Shown here: positions 30,384-42,863 of the stretch, one piece after another
How the letters are laid out: the number at the start of each line of letters is the position of its first letter
Position numbering within the stretch: the first letter of the stretch is position 1
Origin: Escherichia phage MLP3
DNA length: 64,000 bases
Reading direction: 5' to 3' (one strand)
Sequence record: OK148440
Translations under genes and position numbers: made by a program
Notes under the pieces: generated by a model
What the model saw: the letters and a program-made list of their open reading frames with translations, nothing else
What the model was told of the DNA's origin: nothing
Database searches by the model: none

Positions 30384-31619
30384 TTACAGAGTTACTGCTA
30401 CTTCGCTACCCTCAACATTGACAGACTCTAACTTGCGAGGGTTATGAATCTGGACTGGATTGACCGGAACGTTCCAACCACTGCGGTAGAAGTTACGACC
30501 ATCACAGAACAGGATGACATTGGCAGACATTGCATTCGGTTGCAGGTTGTTGTGGACATGACGGATATTTGCAATCCAGTAGCCACGAGACAAAGTGTAG
30601 CCAGTAGGTGCATTACGAATAGTTTGAGTATTCATCTGACCTTCCAGTTGCATTTCTTCAGGAACCACATCAACTGAATCAATCGGCTGTGCTACTTGTC
30701 CTTCCAGTGCAAAGTTTTCATCATCAGCACTTTCAATATCATCCACCAACTCACCGTCTCCATCTTCAATCGGAGTCTGGTAAACCACTTTATACTGAGG
30801 AGTATAGAGAGGGTTTTGAGCTTTAACAAACTCAAGAATGTTATGACGGTAGGTATCCAGAGTTGTACCAGTCAGGCCCGGTGCTGTATTAACTTCCAGT
30901 ACCCACGCTTCTTGACCTTTGGTGATAATATCAACTGCACCGAAATCCAGACCCATTGATTCAACAGCTTTCACTGCATTGATCAGAGAGGCGTCATTCG
31001 GAGCATCTGTGAAGGAGCTTGAGTAAACCCAGCCAGTGTGGTGATTACGAATATCTTCACGATAGTTAGGGTCTTCGCGATAACCATTGCGACGAATCTT
31101 CTTCTGAACATAGGTGATTACACCTTTGAACACATGGACACGCCACTCACGACGTGGGCCTTGAATGCCTTTAGTGTACAGTTCAGCTCGACCAAGACCA
31201 TCACCCGGTTCTACAACAACAATGCCCGAACCAGAGTGACCAGTCAGCTCATGGCGCTCATACACAATATTACCAGTGTTTGACCACTCTTGAGCAGTCT
31301 CTTGAGCATCTGTGTATTCCACAGTTTTAACACCTGCTTGGTCCATCACGCTGAAAGCACGACGTTTGTTCGCTGCCATATGTAAGGCTGCGGTACGGTT
31401 AAGGACGGTTGCAGAACCAAAGAATGATTCAGGATAGCGACGGTTCCCGTAGTTAACAACCACATCACCTTCACGAGAACGCCAGCGGCTATTCTCTGAA
31501 AGAAGACCCATCACGTTAGCATTGATGCGTTCATCACGGATAGTATCACTGATAGCAGATACTAGAGCGTTAACAGAATCAGACGGGCCATACGGAAGAA
31601 CACGGATACGAGTAGTCAT
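30384..31619 (-). CDS. ATP-grasp family ligase with C-terminal extension
   Basis: GAVDIITKGQEAWVLEVNTAPGL matches ATP-grasp C-terminal catalytic motif (RimK-like). Confidence 0.7.
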   Translation of the reverse strand: MTTRIRVLPYGPSDSVNALVSAISDTIRDERINANVMGLLSENSRWRSREGDVVVNYGNRRYPESFFGSATVLNRTAALHMAANKRRAFSVMDQAGVKTVEYTDAQETAQEWSNTGNIVYERHELTGHSGSGIVVVEPGDGLGRAELYTKGIQGPRREWRVHVFKGVITYVQKKIRRNGYREDPNYREDIRNHHTGWVYSSSFTDAPNDASLINAVKAVESMGLDFGAVDIITKGQEAWVLEVNTAPGLTGTTLDTYRHNILEFVKAQNPLYTPQYKVVYQTPIEDGDGELVDDIESADDENFALEGQVAQPIDSVDVVPEEMQLEGQMNTQTIRNAPTGYTLSRGYWIANIRHVHNNLQPNAMSANVILFCDGRNFYRSGWNVPVNPVQIHNPRKLESVNVEGSEVAVTL

Positions 31620-32068: not shown

Positions 32069-34102
32069 TTAGTGTTTACCTTTACAGTAATCTGAATTAC
32101 AGATCACCCTGTTTTCTTTGTTCAGTGAGCAAGTTTCTGCATCACGCCACGGAATTTGTTTATAACAAACTGCACAAAACCCAATTGAAGTCCAGAGGGC
32201 TTTTGTAAACTCAGCTGTTCGTTGTCCATCGTAACTGACAACTGTTTTTCGGAGAGAGGTTGACTTTTCTGGAAATGTCTCCGCTTTCTCAGCGGGTACC
32301 TCCTTTGGGGCATTCTTTGGACCATAAACAGAGATGGCATAAGTATCACCACCACGTTTTTCCAAATACGAATTAGGAACATCTGCAAGTGTGATGTCCC
32401 CTGAACGTTTTGCTGAGCTGACCATTACAATCATACGGCTAAGCATACGTTCATCAACACGAACAGCTACTTCAGGACGACGTGGGTTGGTTGTGTCCAC
32501 TGCTTTAGTCCAAATATAACCCTCAGACAGCGTAACATTCTTTACTTTGTCTTTGATTTCTTTGGAGCAGATATAACAAACATCTTCACCACGAAGTTTA
32601 CTCATTTCGTTGTCAAACTCGAAATCAGTCTTGACTTCACCACAGATAGCACATACACCCAAAGGCACATCTTCTTCCTCTTCAGAGGTTTTAGATAACG
32701 CTTCGAAGCATTCTGGATGCCAGTATGCCTGATAAGCAAACACAGCCTTACGAGCATCTTTCCAGTCAATGTGCTTATCACAACCACCACAGTCACCATG
32801 AGAGTGAGATTCCCAGAACTTACGAGTGACTTCTACACCATTCTTAGTGATGAAGGAGTCCTCTGCATCAAAAGGGATATCATCATCAAAATCAGCAGTA
32901 GTGCTTTGAGGCTCCTTATCTGTAGCATCAACAAACAGCCCTGAAGTTAGTACGAGGCGAATCATACTGTCCACTTCGGAGATACAAGCAATCGTCCCGC
33001 GATATACTACCTTTGGGTTTTCAAGAGCCTTAAGATATTCATCTTTGGCTACGTTGTGAACATCCCCTTCGACATACTCTTGAGCTTTATCATCGTAGAT
33101 GTAACCAACCATCTTACCACGATCTGTGTTGTTATAAGCATGGAACTCGTGAGGAATAATATCCACACGACCATCACGACGATAAGGAAGACCACGATCG
33201 GCAGCCAGTTTGTTCTGGTCTTCAATCGCTTTACGACGACGAATGTCTCCGCTTGTCACGCCGGGCTTGTCGTCTTTGTTTCCGTAAATGTCGCTTGTGC
33301 TGCTGCTTGATTTGTTTGTCTGTTGGTTCTGATAAAGAGAGGAGTTCGAGTAATAGCCGCCCCAGCGACTCGTTACCGTAAAAACCGGAAGCGTGTGCTC
33401 CACCTCTTGAACCAGAGTCATACGACTGTTAGACACATCAAAGATATACTCAGTTCCCACTTTACATTCGAAGTGGTCATTGATACGGTTCTTATGGGAC
33501 TTAGAACGCTCTAAAATCCACATAAGCATAGCTTCTTCAGAAGCTCCAAACCAATCCAAACCACAGCGGGCTAGGTGGAAAGGACGCTCATCATTACGGA
33601 TAATGTGAAGTGTGTTGTCTTTAGCATCATGCCAAATCAAAGTGAATGCACCATCCAGTTTTTGGATAGTCTCTGCTGCTCCAATGGTGTTAATTGAGTG
33701 GCAGATGTTTTCACTATCAACTTCGAAACGCTTACTGTCAGGAAGGAGATCTTGATCTAACAGGGTTCCATTATGAACCAGAGTAATATCCCCGTGAGTA
33801 AATGGGTGAGCATTTCGAGCATTGACAGCCCCACGAGTGGCATGTCGGCTGTGACCAACAATCCACGAAGGAGGAACTACGTAGTTCGTAAGCCCTTTGG
33901 TAATATTTGTATATTCTGTCTGGAGCATAAAAGCATAAGAAGGAAGAGCTTCTTTATAAGAGAAGACTTGCTTTTCACCTTTACGCTGACCAAACACACC
34001 AGTTGAGTGCTGTCCACGGAAAACACCAGCATACAGAAGTTGGTTGAAAATGTCCAAATCTGCTGAGGTCATGTTGCCGCCAGCTAATACGATACCACAA
34101 AT
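32069..34102 (-). CDS. class-II (Ntn) glutamine amidotransferase-like protein with C-terminal Cys-rich zinc-ribbon region; probable non-ATG (AUU) start
   Basis: CGIVLAGG...VFRGQHSTGVFG matches GlmS/PurF N-terminus; the Cys codon lies 9 codons upstream of the first ATG, after an in-frame TAG, with AGGTGG 8 nt before ATT. Confidence 0.6.
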   Translation of the reverse strand: MCGIVLAGGNMTSADLDIFNQLLYAGVFRGQHSTGVFGQRKGEKQVFSYKEALPSYAFMLQTEYTNITKGLTNYVVPPSWIVGHSRHATRGAVNARNAHPFTHGDITLVHNGTLLDQDLLPDSKRFEVDSENICHSINTIGAAETIQKLDGAFTLIWHDAKDNTLHIIRNDERPFHLARCGLDWFGASEEAMLMWILERSKSHKNRINDHFECKVGTEYIFDVSNSRMTLVQEVEHTLPVFTVTSRWGGYYSNSSLYQNQQTNKSSSSTSDIYGNKDDKPGVTSGDIRRRKAIEDQNKLAADRGLPYRRDGRVDIIPHEFHAYNNTDRGKMVGYIYDDKAQEYVEGDVHNVAKDEYLKALENPKVVYRGTIACISEVDSMIRLVLTSGLFVDATDKEPQSTTADFDDDIPFDAEDSFITKNGVEVTRKFWESHSHGDCGGCDKHIDWKDARKAVFAYQAYWHPECFEALSKTSEEEEDVPLGVCAICGEVKTDFEFDNEMSKLRGEDVCYICSKEIKDKVKNVTLSEGYIWTKAVDTTNPRRPEVAVRVDERMLSRMIVMVSSAKRSGDITLADVPNSYLEKRGGDTYAISVYGPKNAPKEVPAEKAETFPEKSTSLRKTVVSYDGQRTAEFTKALWTSIGFCAVCYKQIPWRDAETCSLNKENRVICNSDYCKGKH

Positions 34103-34179
34103 TTTCTAATCCACCTGAAGGGTAAACCCTTTCATCTAATTAACCTTTAAATGCGCCCTGTATAAGAGCGCCCGTTGTG

Positions 34180-35280
34180 TTACAGCAGTCGTTCTAATTG
34201 CATTTCCAGATGGTCTGGAATATAACCAGTGACGTTATCATCACTGCTACCTGATTCACGCATCAATGCAAACATGTGACGAATTTCACGAACCGTTGCG
34301 ATTCGAGTGCTTTCAATCTGAGGGGTGTAGTAGGTCATGATCTCTTCGTAGACACTGTTGGCATTACCGCGCACATATCCCAAGAAACCATAGAAGTCAT
34401 TCATATCACGTAAGTTGATAAGGACTTCACCATCAGGGCCAGTCTGTTGCACACGAACACGACCAACCAAAGTTACAGATTGCTCACGACAGAAGAGAAT
34501 ATCACGAGCAAGACGATACCCTTCAGTGAGATCACTGTCTCTTGGAGTATAGTCTAGGGGTAGATGTTGAATCATAGGAGCGAAGCGCAGCTCATTCAAC
34601 TTCTCAACATAAGCTTCATTGTCTAAATCTGCATATTCAACAGCAAGTTTCTTGAGAACCAAGAAGCGGTTGACCAGATTCAGAAGTTGGCTCTTTTTCC
34701 ACTTCGGCTCTGAGATACGGAACTCAACAGAACCAAATTGAGATAGAGGCAAAAGATTAAGGGAGGTATATTTATCCCAGCTATTAACAAGAGAGTGGAA
34801 GAAAGCTTCCCCGTCTCGGTTGAACGCTGACGAAGCATTCATAACTTGTGCTTGAACGACAGCAAAAGCTGGACAGAAGTTGCTACGATAGCGATGGTAT
34901 CCAGAACATTTGAACATCATCTTTTCATAGAACGTCCATCCAAGAATAACTTTCTTAAGGATATTACTATCAGCGTCACGCATATCCATATGAACGTGAG
35001 TGGAGCAGCGCCAAGTTCCCTCGGCTCCAGAATCCTGTACTGCTTCACTCAGATTGTTAATAGCACGAAGTAATTCTTCACCGTTGTAAGGTCGTGCACA
35101 TACTAATTCACAACCATCACGAAGAGAGCCATCTTCAGTACAAACCCACATATCAGCGTCAATGTCAGTTGTACCTTCGACTTCTAACTCAATACCAACA
35201 CCACACTGAAAAGCAATACTTGGATGCGGTTCAGATAAGCGAGGGTTACGGTATCCAAAAACTTGTGCTACGGTTGTCAT
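34180..35280 (-). CDS. amidoligase (glutamine-synthetase-like COOH-NH2 ligase family)
   Basis: VGIELEVEG and STHVHMD motifs. Confidence 0.55.
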   Translation of the reverse strand: MTTVAQVFGYRNPRLSEPHPSIAFQCGVGIELEVEGTTDIDADMWVCTEDGSLRDGCELVCARPYNGEELLRAINNLSEAVQDSGAEGTWRCSTHVHMDMRDADSNILKKVILGWTFYEKMMFKCSGYHRYRSNFCPAFAVVQAQVMNASSAFNRDGEAFFHSLVNSWDKYTSLNLLPLSQFGSVEFRISEPKWKKSQLLNLVNRFLVLKKLAVEYADLDNEAYVEKLNELRFAPMIQHLPLDYTPRDSDLTEGYRLARDILFCREQSVTLVGRVRVQQTGPDGEVLINLRDMNDFYGFLGYVRGNANSVYEEIMTYYTPQIESTRIATVREIRHMFALMRESGSSDDNVTGYIPDHLEMQLERLL

Positions 35281-35912: not shown

Positions 35913-36719
35913 TTATACAATCTGGAGTTTAGAGGAGAATTTATCCGCTTCTTTAACATCGTTACTGTTGATGATGTTGTGAAGCTTTTCAATTGGAAGG
36001 CGAGAGTGAAGTGACATCAATACTTCCATATCACAGCCTTGAACAACCTTATCAACTTGCTCATAAACAAACTTGCGGGTTGACTTCTCGCCAATCCAGA
36101 AGTTAGAAAGAGAACGATATTCAATACCGTAATCTTTGTAGCGAATGGCAGAAGCCTTTCCGTATAACTCTTTACGACGAGTATCTTTATCCATGATCAC
36201 AGCTGGCAAGGACAGGAAGTAATCACACAACACACCCAACATCATTTGAGTCTGACGACTAATTTCCAGCGTACCAGTGACGCCAAGGTGAACATGACCG
36301 CCAGCAGTACGCAGACCTTTGTCTGTCGCTACTGGAGATGGGTTTTTCTGACCAGTGAAGGCGTTGAAATCAGGAGTACAACCAAATACAAAGGCTGACG
36401 GATGGAAAGATTCCAGCTCTTCTGAAGTGAACACATGAGAGCTAATCCCAAGTGCTGCCTCCATGCCACGTTCATTGAGAACTTTGTTAGTCAGATCAAT
36501 ACCACGCTGAATGTTATCATTAAACGCTTCAAACCCTTTCTGTGGGTTAATATCGAACTCGGCCAGAACGTTGTCTTCTTGAAGACGAACATCAGGGGCC
36601 AGATCAATTTTGTTGTCTTTAGAGCAGCCCAGCTTACCAGCCACAGAGGTGATAATACCAGAAGCAGTACGAACAAACATTTCAGGGTCAGAACCAATAA
36701 GGAAAGCACGCTTAGTCAT
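35913..36719 (-). CDS. amidoligase-like protein (second copy, divergent)
   Basis: FLIGSDPEMF and AGGHVHLGV motifs; ATG at 36719 with GGAG RBS (table start GTG at 36764). Confidence 0.45.
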   Translation of the reverse strand: MTKRAFLIGSDPEMFVRTASGIITSVAGKLGCSKDNKIDLAPDVRLQEDNVLAEFDINPQKGFEAFNDNIQRGIDLTNKVLNERGMEAALGISSHVFTSEELESFHPSAFVFGCTPDFNAFTGQKNPSPVATDKGLRTAGGHVHLGVTGTLEISRQTQMMLGVLCDYFLSLPAVIMDKDTRRKELYGKASAIRYKDYGIEYRSLSNFWIGEKSTRKFVYEQVDKVVQGCDMEVLMSLHSRLPIEKLHNIINSNDVKEADKFSSKLQIV

Positions 36720-37662
36720 TGTAATACTCCACGAGTTCATCAAAAAGGGAAACAACACGAGCACCAGCTTCTTCTGGTGTCATTGAGGAAGGTACTGCTT
36801 GCATCAGTCGTTCGATAAAACTGCGAACAGTAATTCTGTCCATACGCTGATCTAATACTTCTCTCTTGTGACCTGCACAAGTTGACCAGAGACGCAACCA
36901 CTCACTCATACTCTCGTAATGGTCAGGGTCTTGGTCACGACGACGTGCCATACGACGGAGAACTCCATCATTGTGGTTTCGTACATAACCATCTCGGTTA
37001 TCATCAACACCGAACACATTCTGAACCCATACGTTTTCAGAAAATTCATCAGTGGTGCAAATTAGTGGCAGAAATGCAATTGCACTCATGTCACCATCAA
37101 AATAAGTCGCTGCTGACTCGTCAGTTGAGTCTACGTCATTACTATAACACCAGCGACCAAAGAAGTTACGACTTAAACCAGCTAAGCGTAGAGCTAAACC
37201 GATTCGTTGTCGCTTAAGCAACTCTTCCTTGTCTTGTACGCCTTCCTGAAGGAACTCCATTCCATTAAAATCACCATCCAAATAGCTACGGATGGTCATT
37301 AGTCCAGTAAACACCTTGTCTGCTGGATGGTTTCGAAGGTTCACGGCAATGGAGTTCACCGAAGTGACAGAGAACATATCTTTATAGCAAGACATTGAGT
37401 TAAAAATATCTGTTGCTTCAACTAAAGCTCTTTCGATATCTTTAGCTGGCACGCCATAAAAATTGTGAGGCCAGAAGTTAATAACTTCAATTTCTGAAGT
37501 TCTATCACGAAGGCTTGTTCGGTTACGACTTTCACCGTTAATGTCTGTAACAGAATACATGTGCATACAGTTAAAAGTACCAAAGCAAGCTCTTCCTTTG
37601 AACACTGACTCACCGAAATCCTCTGCCGGTGTTACCGGAGCAATCGATGCGGAGATTGACAT
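36712..37662 (-). CDS. hypothetical protein in ligase cluster
   Basis: ATG; 316 aa. Confidence 0.45.
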   Translation of the reverse strand: MSISASIAPVTPAEDFGESVFKGRACFGTFNCMHMYSVTDINGESRNRTSLRDRTSEIEVINFWPHNFYGVPAKDIERALVEATDIFNSMSCYKDMFSVTSVNSIAVNLRNHPADKVFTGLMTIRSYLDGDFNGMEFLQEGVQDKEELLKRQRIGLALRLAGLSRNFFGRWCYSNDVDSTDESAATYFDGDMSAIAFLPLICTTDEFSENVWVQNVFGVDDNRDGYVRNHNDGVLRRMARRRDQDPDHYESMSEWLRLWSTCAGHKREVLDQRMDRITVRSFIERLMQAVPSSMTPEEAGARVVSLFDELVEYYND

Positions 37663-42787: not shown

Positions 42788-42863
42788 TGGTGCACCCTAC
42801 AGGACTCGAACCTGTAACCAACGACTTAGAAGGTCGCTGCTCTGTCCGTTGAGCTAAGGGTGC
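42788..42863 (-). tRNA. tRNA-Arg, anticodon UCU
   Basis: hand-folded cloverleaf: acceptor GCACCCU/AGGGUGC, D-stem GCUC/GAGC, anticodon loop CUUCUAA, T-arm ACAGG-UUCGAGU-CCUGU, encoded CCA. Confidence 0.85.

Follow-up and report, generated by a model that had tools for sequence, protein, structure and literature searches.

A putative AUU initiation codon before the catalytic cysteine of a phage class-II amidotransferase, and its recurrence in the enzyme family

Introduction

In Escherichia phage MLP3 (sequence record OK148440), the gene of a glutamine amidotransferase raises the question of where its translation begins. Class-II, or N-terminal nucleophile (Ntn), glutamine amidotransferases need a Cys as residue 1 of the mature protein, and in the MLP3 gene the codon of this Cys lies upstream of the first ATG, directly behind an ATT. 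The whole stretch of 64,000 nucleotides (nt) that was analysed, hereafter the window, was 100% identical to Escherichia phage vB_EcoP-101114UKE3 (UKE3; Suseptimavirus, Gordonclarkvirinae) over the 801 nt compared, and is by its sequence a phiEco32-like podovirus of E. coli. An earlier note, made from the letters of the window alone, had held initiation at AUU to be probable.

Anatomy of the start site

The gene is encoded on the minus strand. Reading its codons confirmed that the first ATG of the open reading frame (ORF) is located at 34070-34072 and that codons for I-C-G-I-V-L-A-G-G-N precede it in frame, as the earlier note had stated. On the minus strand the region reads ATG(34135) AAA GGG TTT ACC CTT CAG GTG GAT TAG(34108-34106) AAA(34105-34103) ATT(34102-34100), and it continues from the ATT with TGT GGT ATC GTA TTA GCT GGC GGC AAC ATG(34072-34070). 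Between the TAG and the TGT of the N-terminal Cys (34097..34099; codon 2 of the ATT-started ORF and predicted mature residue 1), the ATT (34100..34102), the putative initiation codon, is the sole in-frame near-cognate start, and no ATG, GTG or TTG is found in frame in that interval. The ATT had been described as following directly after the TAG; the in-frame stop is there, but an AAA (Lys) codon intervenes.

An 8-nt spacer, ATTAGAAA (34103..34110), holds the in-frame TAG (34106-34108) and separates the ATT from a sequence that reads as a Shine-Dalgarno (SD), AGGTGG (34111..34116), which is AGGAGG in metagenomic relatives. The SD had thus been placed exactly, 8 nt before the ATT at 34116-34111. 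It was also fair to say that the ATG at 34070-34072 lacks a comparable element, with just a GGCGG located 4 nt upstream of it; the GCGG inside it is annotated as a ribosome binding site in the SU7 record. A hairpin, AAGGG-TTTA-CCCTT (34118..34131), abuts the SD with its 3′ end 15 nt before the ATT.

The earlier note had overlooked that the ATG at 34135 opens a 9-codon upstream ORF (uORF), MKGFTLQVD* (34106..34135), in the same frame as the amidotransferase and stopping at the TAG. Before the uORF ATG lies a direct repeat, AGGTTAATTAGA (34135..34146), that resembles the translation initiation region (TIR) of the main gene, being identical in 10 of 12 positions to AGGTGGATTAGA (34105-34116). The two repeats are 30 nt apart, and the uORF thus follows a sequence nearly identical to the SD and spacer of the main gene.

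The N-terminal cysteine and class-II membership

The ATT-started product of 677 amino acids scored 53.7 bits against Pfam GATase_6 (cut-off 27) and 25.1 bits against GATase_7 (cut-off 25). Its alignment to phrog_4736 (E = 3.8e-184) covered residues 2-514, with residue 2 on profile position 2. An alignment of 14 diverse amidotransferase homologues, A1, was made and was also used as a profile. Its invariant columns were C1 G2 R28 G29 H83 R85 T88 G90 H98 P99 F100 H109 N110 G111 D128 S129, that is C1-G2, R-G, H-x-R...T-x-G, H-P-F, H-N-G (the His-Asn-Gly oxyanion hole) and D-S. Position 1 of the A1 profile aligned to residue 1 of the solved structures of E. coli GlmS (1xff), E. coli PurF (1ecb) and B. 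subtilis PurF (1ao0), in agreement with the claim that CGIV is a class-II N-terminus with Cys as residue 1. The CGIV stretch of the window and the MCGIV N-termini of relatives are homologous, and the arrangement is far beyond chance. Judged by these profiles, the gene product is a class-II (Ntn) glutamine amidotransferase with predicted glutaminase activity, and because the profile and structure alignments start at Cys1, the enzyme is expected to need this Cys as its first residue.

Conservation of the ATT start among related phages

Used as a query, 60 nt comprising the leader and the ATT were found at 99% identity or more in 94 of 98 phage genomes, whereas an 801-nt query showed most of these phages to be just 72-76% identical to the window. 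Conservation of the ATT-TGT arrangement in related phages, which the earlier note had proposed as a check, therefore held in these genomes, and independent ATT/ATC lineages described below were found in addition. In the approximately 55 nt upstream of the ATT there were zero substitutions across the phiEco32-like genomes. After ATT|TGT, third-position synonymous changes appeared (GGT/GGC, GCT/GCA, GGC/GGG/GGT/GGA and AAC/AAT), and the codons between the ATT and the ATG at 34070-34072 varied almost only synonymously. An invariant leader followed by synonymous changes indicates that coding-type selection begins exactly at the Cys codon. The position of the window ATG is CTG in phiEco32 and CTC in KBNP1711, and this ATG can therefore not be the conserved start.

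In Salmonella phage 7-11, Proteus phage J3S, Cronobacter phage 009 and Aeromonas phage LAh_6, a plain ATG-TGT-GG was found at the same position. Aeromonas phage BUCT695, a member of a different family (Grimontviridae), displayed the same TAG-AAA-ATT-TGT with a nearly identical leader. Apart from L222 (metagenomic loci are referred to by such L numbers), no ATT/ATC-class relative had a canonical start in frame in the interval from the preceding stop to Cys1. As a separate observation, the upstream half of the leader (34118-34150, minus strand; TTAAAGGTTAATTAGATGAAAGGG...) showed the same invariance as the TIR, in 94 of 98 genomes.

The public records of these phages disagree on the start. The GenBank/RefSeq records of phiEco32 (2008), SU10 and Bas87, from three annotation teams, have a coding sequence (CDS) that begins exactly at the ATT. 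In the records of UKE3 (NC_070982/MZ234017), SU7 (NC_070980) and ECBP2 (NC_018859) the CDS begins at the equivalent of the internal ATG at 34070..34072 (Met11), and in those of KBNP1711 (NC_023593) and BUCT695 (NC_070977) it begins still further downstream; the deposited UKE3, SU7, ECBP2, KBNP1711 and BUCT695 proteins consequently are without the catalytic Cys1. A literature search, in which two key phiEco32 papers were not covered, returned no paper on an ATT start codon in this phage group. The ATT start is thus not new at the annotation level, and the new part is the wider family pattern.

Every comparative test favoured the proposal of the earlier note, and the three records give it a precedent. 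We conclude that the amidotransferase is very probably translated from the AUU at 34100-34102. The AGGTGG, 8 nt upstream, would position the 30S subunit at this codon, and the initiator formylmethionyl-tRNA would read it as a near-cognate start. Removal of the formylmethionine by host deformylase and methionine aminopeptidase would then leave Cys as residue 1 and nucleophile of the Ntn glutaminase. The in-frame TAG two codons upstream would bar an N-terminally extended product and so guard activity, because such a product would be catalytically blocked. The strong SD, the optimal A-rich spacer of 8 nt and the hairpin abutting the SD may together constitute a module that makes a weak AUU usable in any context. 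As AUU is intrinsically weak and discriminated against by initiation factor 3 (IF3), it would at the same time be a built-in attenuator, and from the same two properties it is reasonable to infer that this start is translationally tunable.

The ATT-start block across the enzyme family

Metagenomes were scanned for the exact pattern GATTAGAAAATTTGTGG. Most of the matches listed were due to chance; among them, however, and besides the phiEco32-like phages, the pattern headed divergent class-II amidotransferases on nine contigs representing at least seven lineages (L029, L043/L090, L093, L104, L114, L119 and L063/L087). In A1, the motif-bearing proteins were 28-41% identical to the window protein. 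GGAG was found immediately 5′ in all nine contigs, as AGGAG except for CGGAG in L063/L087. The block common to these genes is approximately 22 nt long, AGGAGGATTAGAAA-ATT-TGTGG, with unrelated sequence on both flanks, and the spacer was identical in at least seven divergent lineages of the enzyme. The genes upstream of the block differed between lineages, and all three frames were occupied by them. By our count, 7 of 11 upstream ORFs at the ATT-class loci were in the same frame as the ATT gene, against an expected one third, in what is a small sample.

For an unbiased sample, homologues were gathered by protein profile and not by motif, and were de-duplicated to 73 genes. The codon before Cys1 was ATG in 63 of these, ATT in 6, ATC in 1, GTG in 2 and TTG in 1, so that ATT or ATC preceded Cys1 in 7 of the 73 (approximately 10%). 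The independent ATT/ATC lineages carried an SD at the right distance before the start. One-base variants of the spacer were found in L166 (AGGAG-ATGAGAAA-ATT) and L227 (GGATTAGTAA-ATT), and a spacer within one mismatch of that of the window was present in 3 of the 7 ATT/ATC genes compared with none of the 63 ATG genes (p = 6e-4). One ATC-started family member, L213 (Cys codon at 601), had the TIR ttaacttaaaggagatatatc, which we take to resemble the leader of phage T7 gene 10.

The SD and spacer AGGAGGATTAGAAA were also very common before ATG, with at least 120 matches. The possibility that the window spacer is a generally favoured phage spacer was rejected, since two composition-matched permutations were equally common in that position (at least 120 and 87 matches); with permutations as common as the spacer itself, its recurrence is specific to AUU-started amidotransferases.

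In a neighbour-joining tree of low resolution the motif-bearing genes were scattered, each with ATG sisters. An identical 22-mer in such scattered lineages rules out repeated convergence. The simplest reading of these sequences would be an old arrangement, frozen for as long as the start was AUU and decaying after a change from AUU to AUG. Alternatively, the TIR may be mobile. The loci L043 (ATT at 585) and L090 (ATT at 785) were seen to carry the same amidotransferase behind different upstream genes; their similarity breaks exactly at the 5′ edge of CAGGAGG, which indicates that the TIR travels with the gene.

A hairpin abutting the Shine-Dalgarno

A stem-loop of 4-8 base pairs (bp) ending 12-22 nt before the start was found in 12 of 16 non-AUG family genes, and in eleven it ended at 13-15 nt. 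The stem sequence was different in every lineage. Only 5 of 64 ATG-started family genes displayed a hairpin in the same zone (Fisher p = 1.4e-7 against 12 of 16). Among unrelated phage genes with an identical AGGAGGATTAGAAA followed by ATG, 7 of 73 had a hairpin in the zone and none of these ended at 13-15 nt (p = 2.7e-7); the view that the hairpin is a property of this TIR as such was accordingly rejected. L227 has lost the uORF ATG but keeps the hairpin with a longer stem, AAGGGAT-TT-ATCCCTT, so that what is conserved along with the AUU is the hairpin and not the uORF.

The predicted fold of the whole leader was no more stable than that of shuffled sequence (z = -0.59), and reliance is therefore placed on the local hairpin only. 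It could act as an insulator that keeps the SD single-stranded, as an element docking on the ribosomal platform or as a stabiliser of the 5′ end.

The block before other phage genes

When TGTGG was not required, the 17-mer AGGAGGATTAGAAAATT was found, among the matches listed, to head long ORFs that are not amidotransferases and have no canonical start nearby. These IMG/VR loci were L246 (ATT at 2114, forward strand), L250 (8546, forward), L251 (188, forward), L242 (8206, reverse strand; L253 is a near-duplicate) and L256 (1733, reverse strand). From residue 2 onwards the L246 product aligned to positions 2-188 of 189 of the internal-virion-protein profile phrog_805, and the L242 product aligned to the virion structural profile phrog_6121 from profile position 7. 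Inspected by eye, 3 of the 5 non-amidotransferase lineages had a hairpin ending 15-19 nt before the ATT. In a mirror control with a permuted spacer and ATT, no such ORF was found among 17 matches (7 lineages). By our own count the difference amounts to 6 of 15 against 0 of 7 (p ~0.07), which is suggestive only.

We tentatively consider that hairpin, GGAGG, AUUAGAAA and AUU form an ancient, portable phage module for AUU initiation, an infC-like and IF3-sensing attenuator in use beyond the amidotransferases, although this is at present rather doubtful. If true, the module would be held nearly base for base under purifying selection while the start is AUU and would decay after a change to AUG, and the expression of certain phage genes would be tied to the state of the host initiation machinery.

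Alternative explanations

Some observations weigh against AUU initiation as proposed here. The proteomics of phage SU10 detected the amidotransferase as an early product, but the supplements consulted list no peptides. The sequence AUU-UGU-GG also creates out-of-frame UUG and GUG codons, intrinsically stronger starts than AUU and within range of the SD, and much of the initiation at the site may therefore be unproductive. The uORF ends 3 nt before the AUU, which makes re-initiation conceivable instead of arrival de novo, and TIR function by itself does not account for the invariance seen in the upstream half of the leader. An overlapping out-of-frame gene beginning at the UUG or GUG was considered and rejected, the ORFs being 7-39 and 2-15 codons with no conservation of length; these codons hide no gene but may act as decoys.

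The most serious competitor to de novo initiation is a coupled process in which the uORF, or an upstream gene in some relatives, is translated, the hairpin is melted and the terminating ribosome restarts at the AUU. The uORF shares the frame of the enzyme, is preceded by a TIR-like repeat of its own and is invariant in the phiEco32-like phages; in L043, L104 and L246 a long upstream ORF stops at the same TAG, L093 has a uORF of 4 codons (ATG CAG GAG GAT TAG), and in infC the stop codon of thrS is in the same place. However, in L029, L090, L114, L119 and L063 the TAG ends neither a uORF nor an upstream ORF, L227 is without the uORF ATG and L166 without the TAG, while BUCT695 retains the uORF ATG without an SD for it. 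A strong SD at ideal spacing is moreover what de novo initiation requires. The uORF is thus conserved in the phiEco32-like phages and BUCT695, and absent from L227 and most other ATT-class lineages, and the uORF as a conserved feature was rejected as a general rule. Termination-reinitiation is on balance unlikely to be the main route to the AUU; it refines initiation at the AUU instead of replacing it, and is a possible contributor in the clade of the window. The leader might instead serve mainly as a promoter, or as a stem-loop stabilising the 5′ end of a transcript starting just upstream, with the conservation of the ATT as a by-product. Upstream of the hairpin, roughly 25 nt are invariant but have no TIR role, several relatives have a TTTAAA(T/G)GT motif behind a terminator-like hairpin, and transcripts from gp36 promoters start 6-8 bp past the promoter element (PMC8948821). 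On the other hand, the leader does not fit tAATGTAtA, the consensus of gp36 promoters, and none of the mapped promoters is at gene 83; a scan of the leader for promoters, sigma-70 included, and for terminators found nothing. An Rfam search of 33900-34300 gave no credible match at E<10, and the leader is unique, neither of its halves recurring elsewhere in the window. Nor can a promoter account for an identical SD-spacer-ATT block in unrelated contexts, and we regard this explanation as improbable.

Two explanations remain. Initiation at 34070-34072, where the ORF has its first canonical start codon (ATG), would agree with the UKE3, SU7 and ECBP2 records and with the weak GGCGG before it, and would yield a glutaminase-dead domain without Cys1. 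The ATG is missing in phiEco32 and KBNP1711, the 10 codons upstream of it are under purifying selection at the protein level, and the full catalytic set is conserved in a protein whose alignment to family profiles and solved structures begins at the Cys; such a start is very improbable. Readthrough or suppression of the TAG, followed by autocatalytic cleavage of a propeptide MKGFTLQVD-X-KI, would make use of the uORF being in frame with the enzyme. Propeptide-bearing Ntn amidotransferases exist, and the propeptide of B. subtilis PurF is removed autocatalytically. But no suppressor tRNA was found in the window, where tRNA-Arg(TCT) (42788-42863, minus strand) is the single tRNA gene; L227 has tandem stops TAG TAA, and L166 is without an in-frame TAG at this place. 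Most other lineages have no start-bearing sequence in frame upstream of the TAG, with upstream genes in all three frames, and conservation of the would-be propeptide is confined to one clade. Nor was an in-frame extension of the N-terminus that opens with a canonical start found in the gene: a stop is located two codons before Cys1, and the interval holds no such start. Readthrough can hardly be credited as the source of the active enzyme.

Gene neighbourhood

The amidotransferase CDS, corrected to 677 codons (32069..34102, minus strand; Pfam GATase_6 and phrog_4736), is part of a gene cluster already known from phiEco32. The other members are a RimK-like ATP-grasp protein (30384-31619), an Amidoligase_2 protein (34180-35280) and a phiEco32-type COOH-NH2 ligase (35913-36764). 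The C-terminal part of the amidotransferase, approximately 430 amino acids (32069-33350, minus strand), is rich in Cys and contains several CxxC pairs. Its match to LIM is weak and sub-threshold, and no acceptor or synthase domain is assigned to it. A stem-loop, GCGCUCU-UAUAC-AGGGCGC (34153..34171, minus strand), is predicted to fold 3′ of the amidoligase stop codon, and compensatory changes were found in phiEco32 and KBNP1711 (GUGCCUC...GGGGCAC). It is terminator-like but without a T-run, and was not called by the terminator scan; for want of the T-run it may not be a classical terminator.

Implications for annotation and regulation

Many public records, RefSeq included, start the gene of this widespread phage enzyme at a later ATG or GTG and delete the catalytic Cys, as a result of which the enzyme looks inactive and family alignments are corrupted. 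Since approximately 10% of the family has ATT or ATC before Cys1, gene callers that ignore ATT will make the same error throughout the family. With AUU fixed in about 100 genomes and recurring over a deeply diverged enzyme family together with its companion module of SD, spacer and hairpin, these genes offer a natural system for asking what renders a weak start codon usable and regulatable. The pattern suggests that the dose or timing of the predicted glutaminase, within its amidoligase and ATP-grasp cluster, is under strong selection.

Comparison with known systems

Among the closest systems are the orthologues phi32_83 of phiEco32 (ABY52884 / YP_001671828) and those of SU10 and Bas87, which are the same gene with an identical leader and a CDS from the same ATT. 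GlmS and PurF share the glutaminase fold and catalytic set, and in these enzymes too Cys1 is exposed on removal of the initiator Met. Their genes start AUG-UGY. They carry a sugar isomerase or phosphoribosyltransferase domain, whereas the Cys-rich C-terminus of the phage protein is unrelated to either. The PurF-type propeptide of B. subtilis is another route to an exposed Cys1; it needs an in-frame extension that begins with a canonical start, and the phage gene has no such extension.

Initiation at AUU in E. coli reaches approximately 1-2% of that at AUG (range 0.02-3%), and only infC and pcnB are listed as confirmed AUU genes in this species (10.1101/063800). Excess IF3 selectively suppresses non-canonical starts (PMC2268962). 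In Enterococcus faecalis the rare ATT start of ebpA is reported to attenuate expression, and the gene had earlier been mis-annotated at a downstream ATG (PMC4447247). In difference to the phage gene, ebpA is a pilus gene of a bacterium, its TIR is unrelated, and its start was tested by experiment.

The initiation region of infC in E. coli MG1655, TTGGAGGAATAAGGT-ATT-AAA, consists of GGAGG, an 8-nt spacer and AUU. The stop codon of thrS is in frame exactly two codons upstream, so that the layout matches the GGAGG-AT-TAG-AAA-ATT of the phage genes, and in both the AUU is conserved among orthologues. The two spacers have just 3 of 8 bases in common, and no hairpin abutting the SD was seen in infC when the sequence was read by eye. 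In infC the AUU is the sensor of IF3 autoregulation, which the AUU of the phage gene is not known to be, and unlike in infC the residue after the initiator is here the catalytic nucleophile. The infC-like layout, taken together with the weakness of AUU and its suppression by IF3, makes an attenuating, IF3-sensitive start the natural expectation for the phage amidotransferase.

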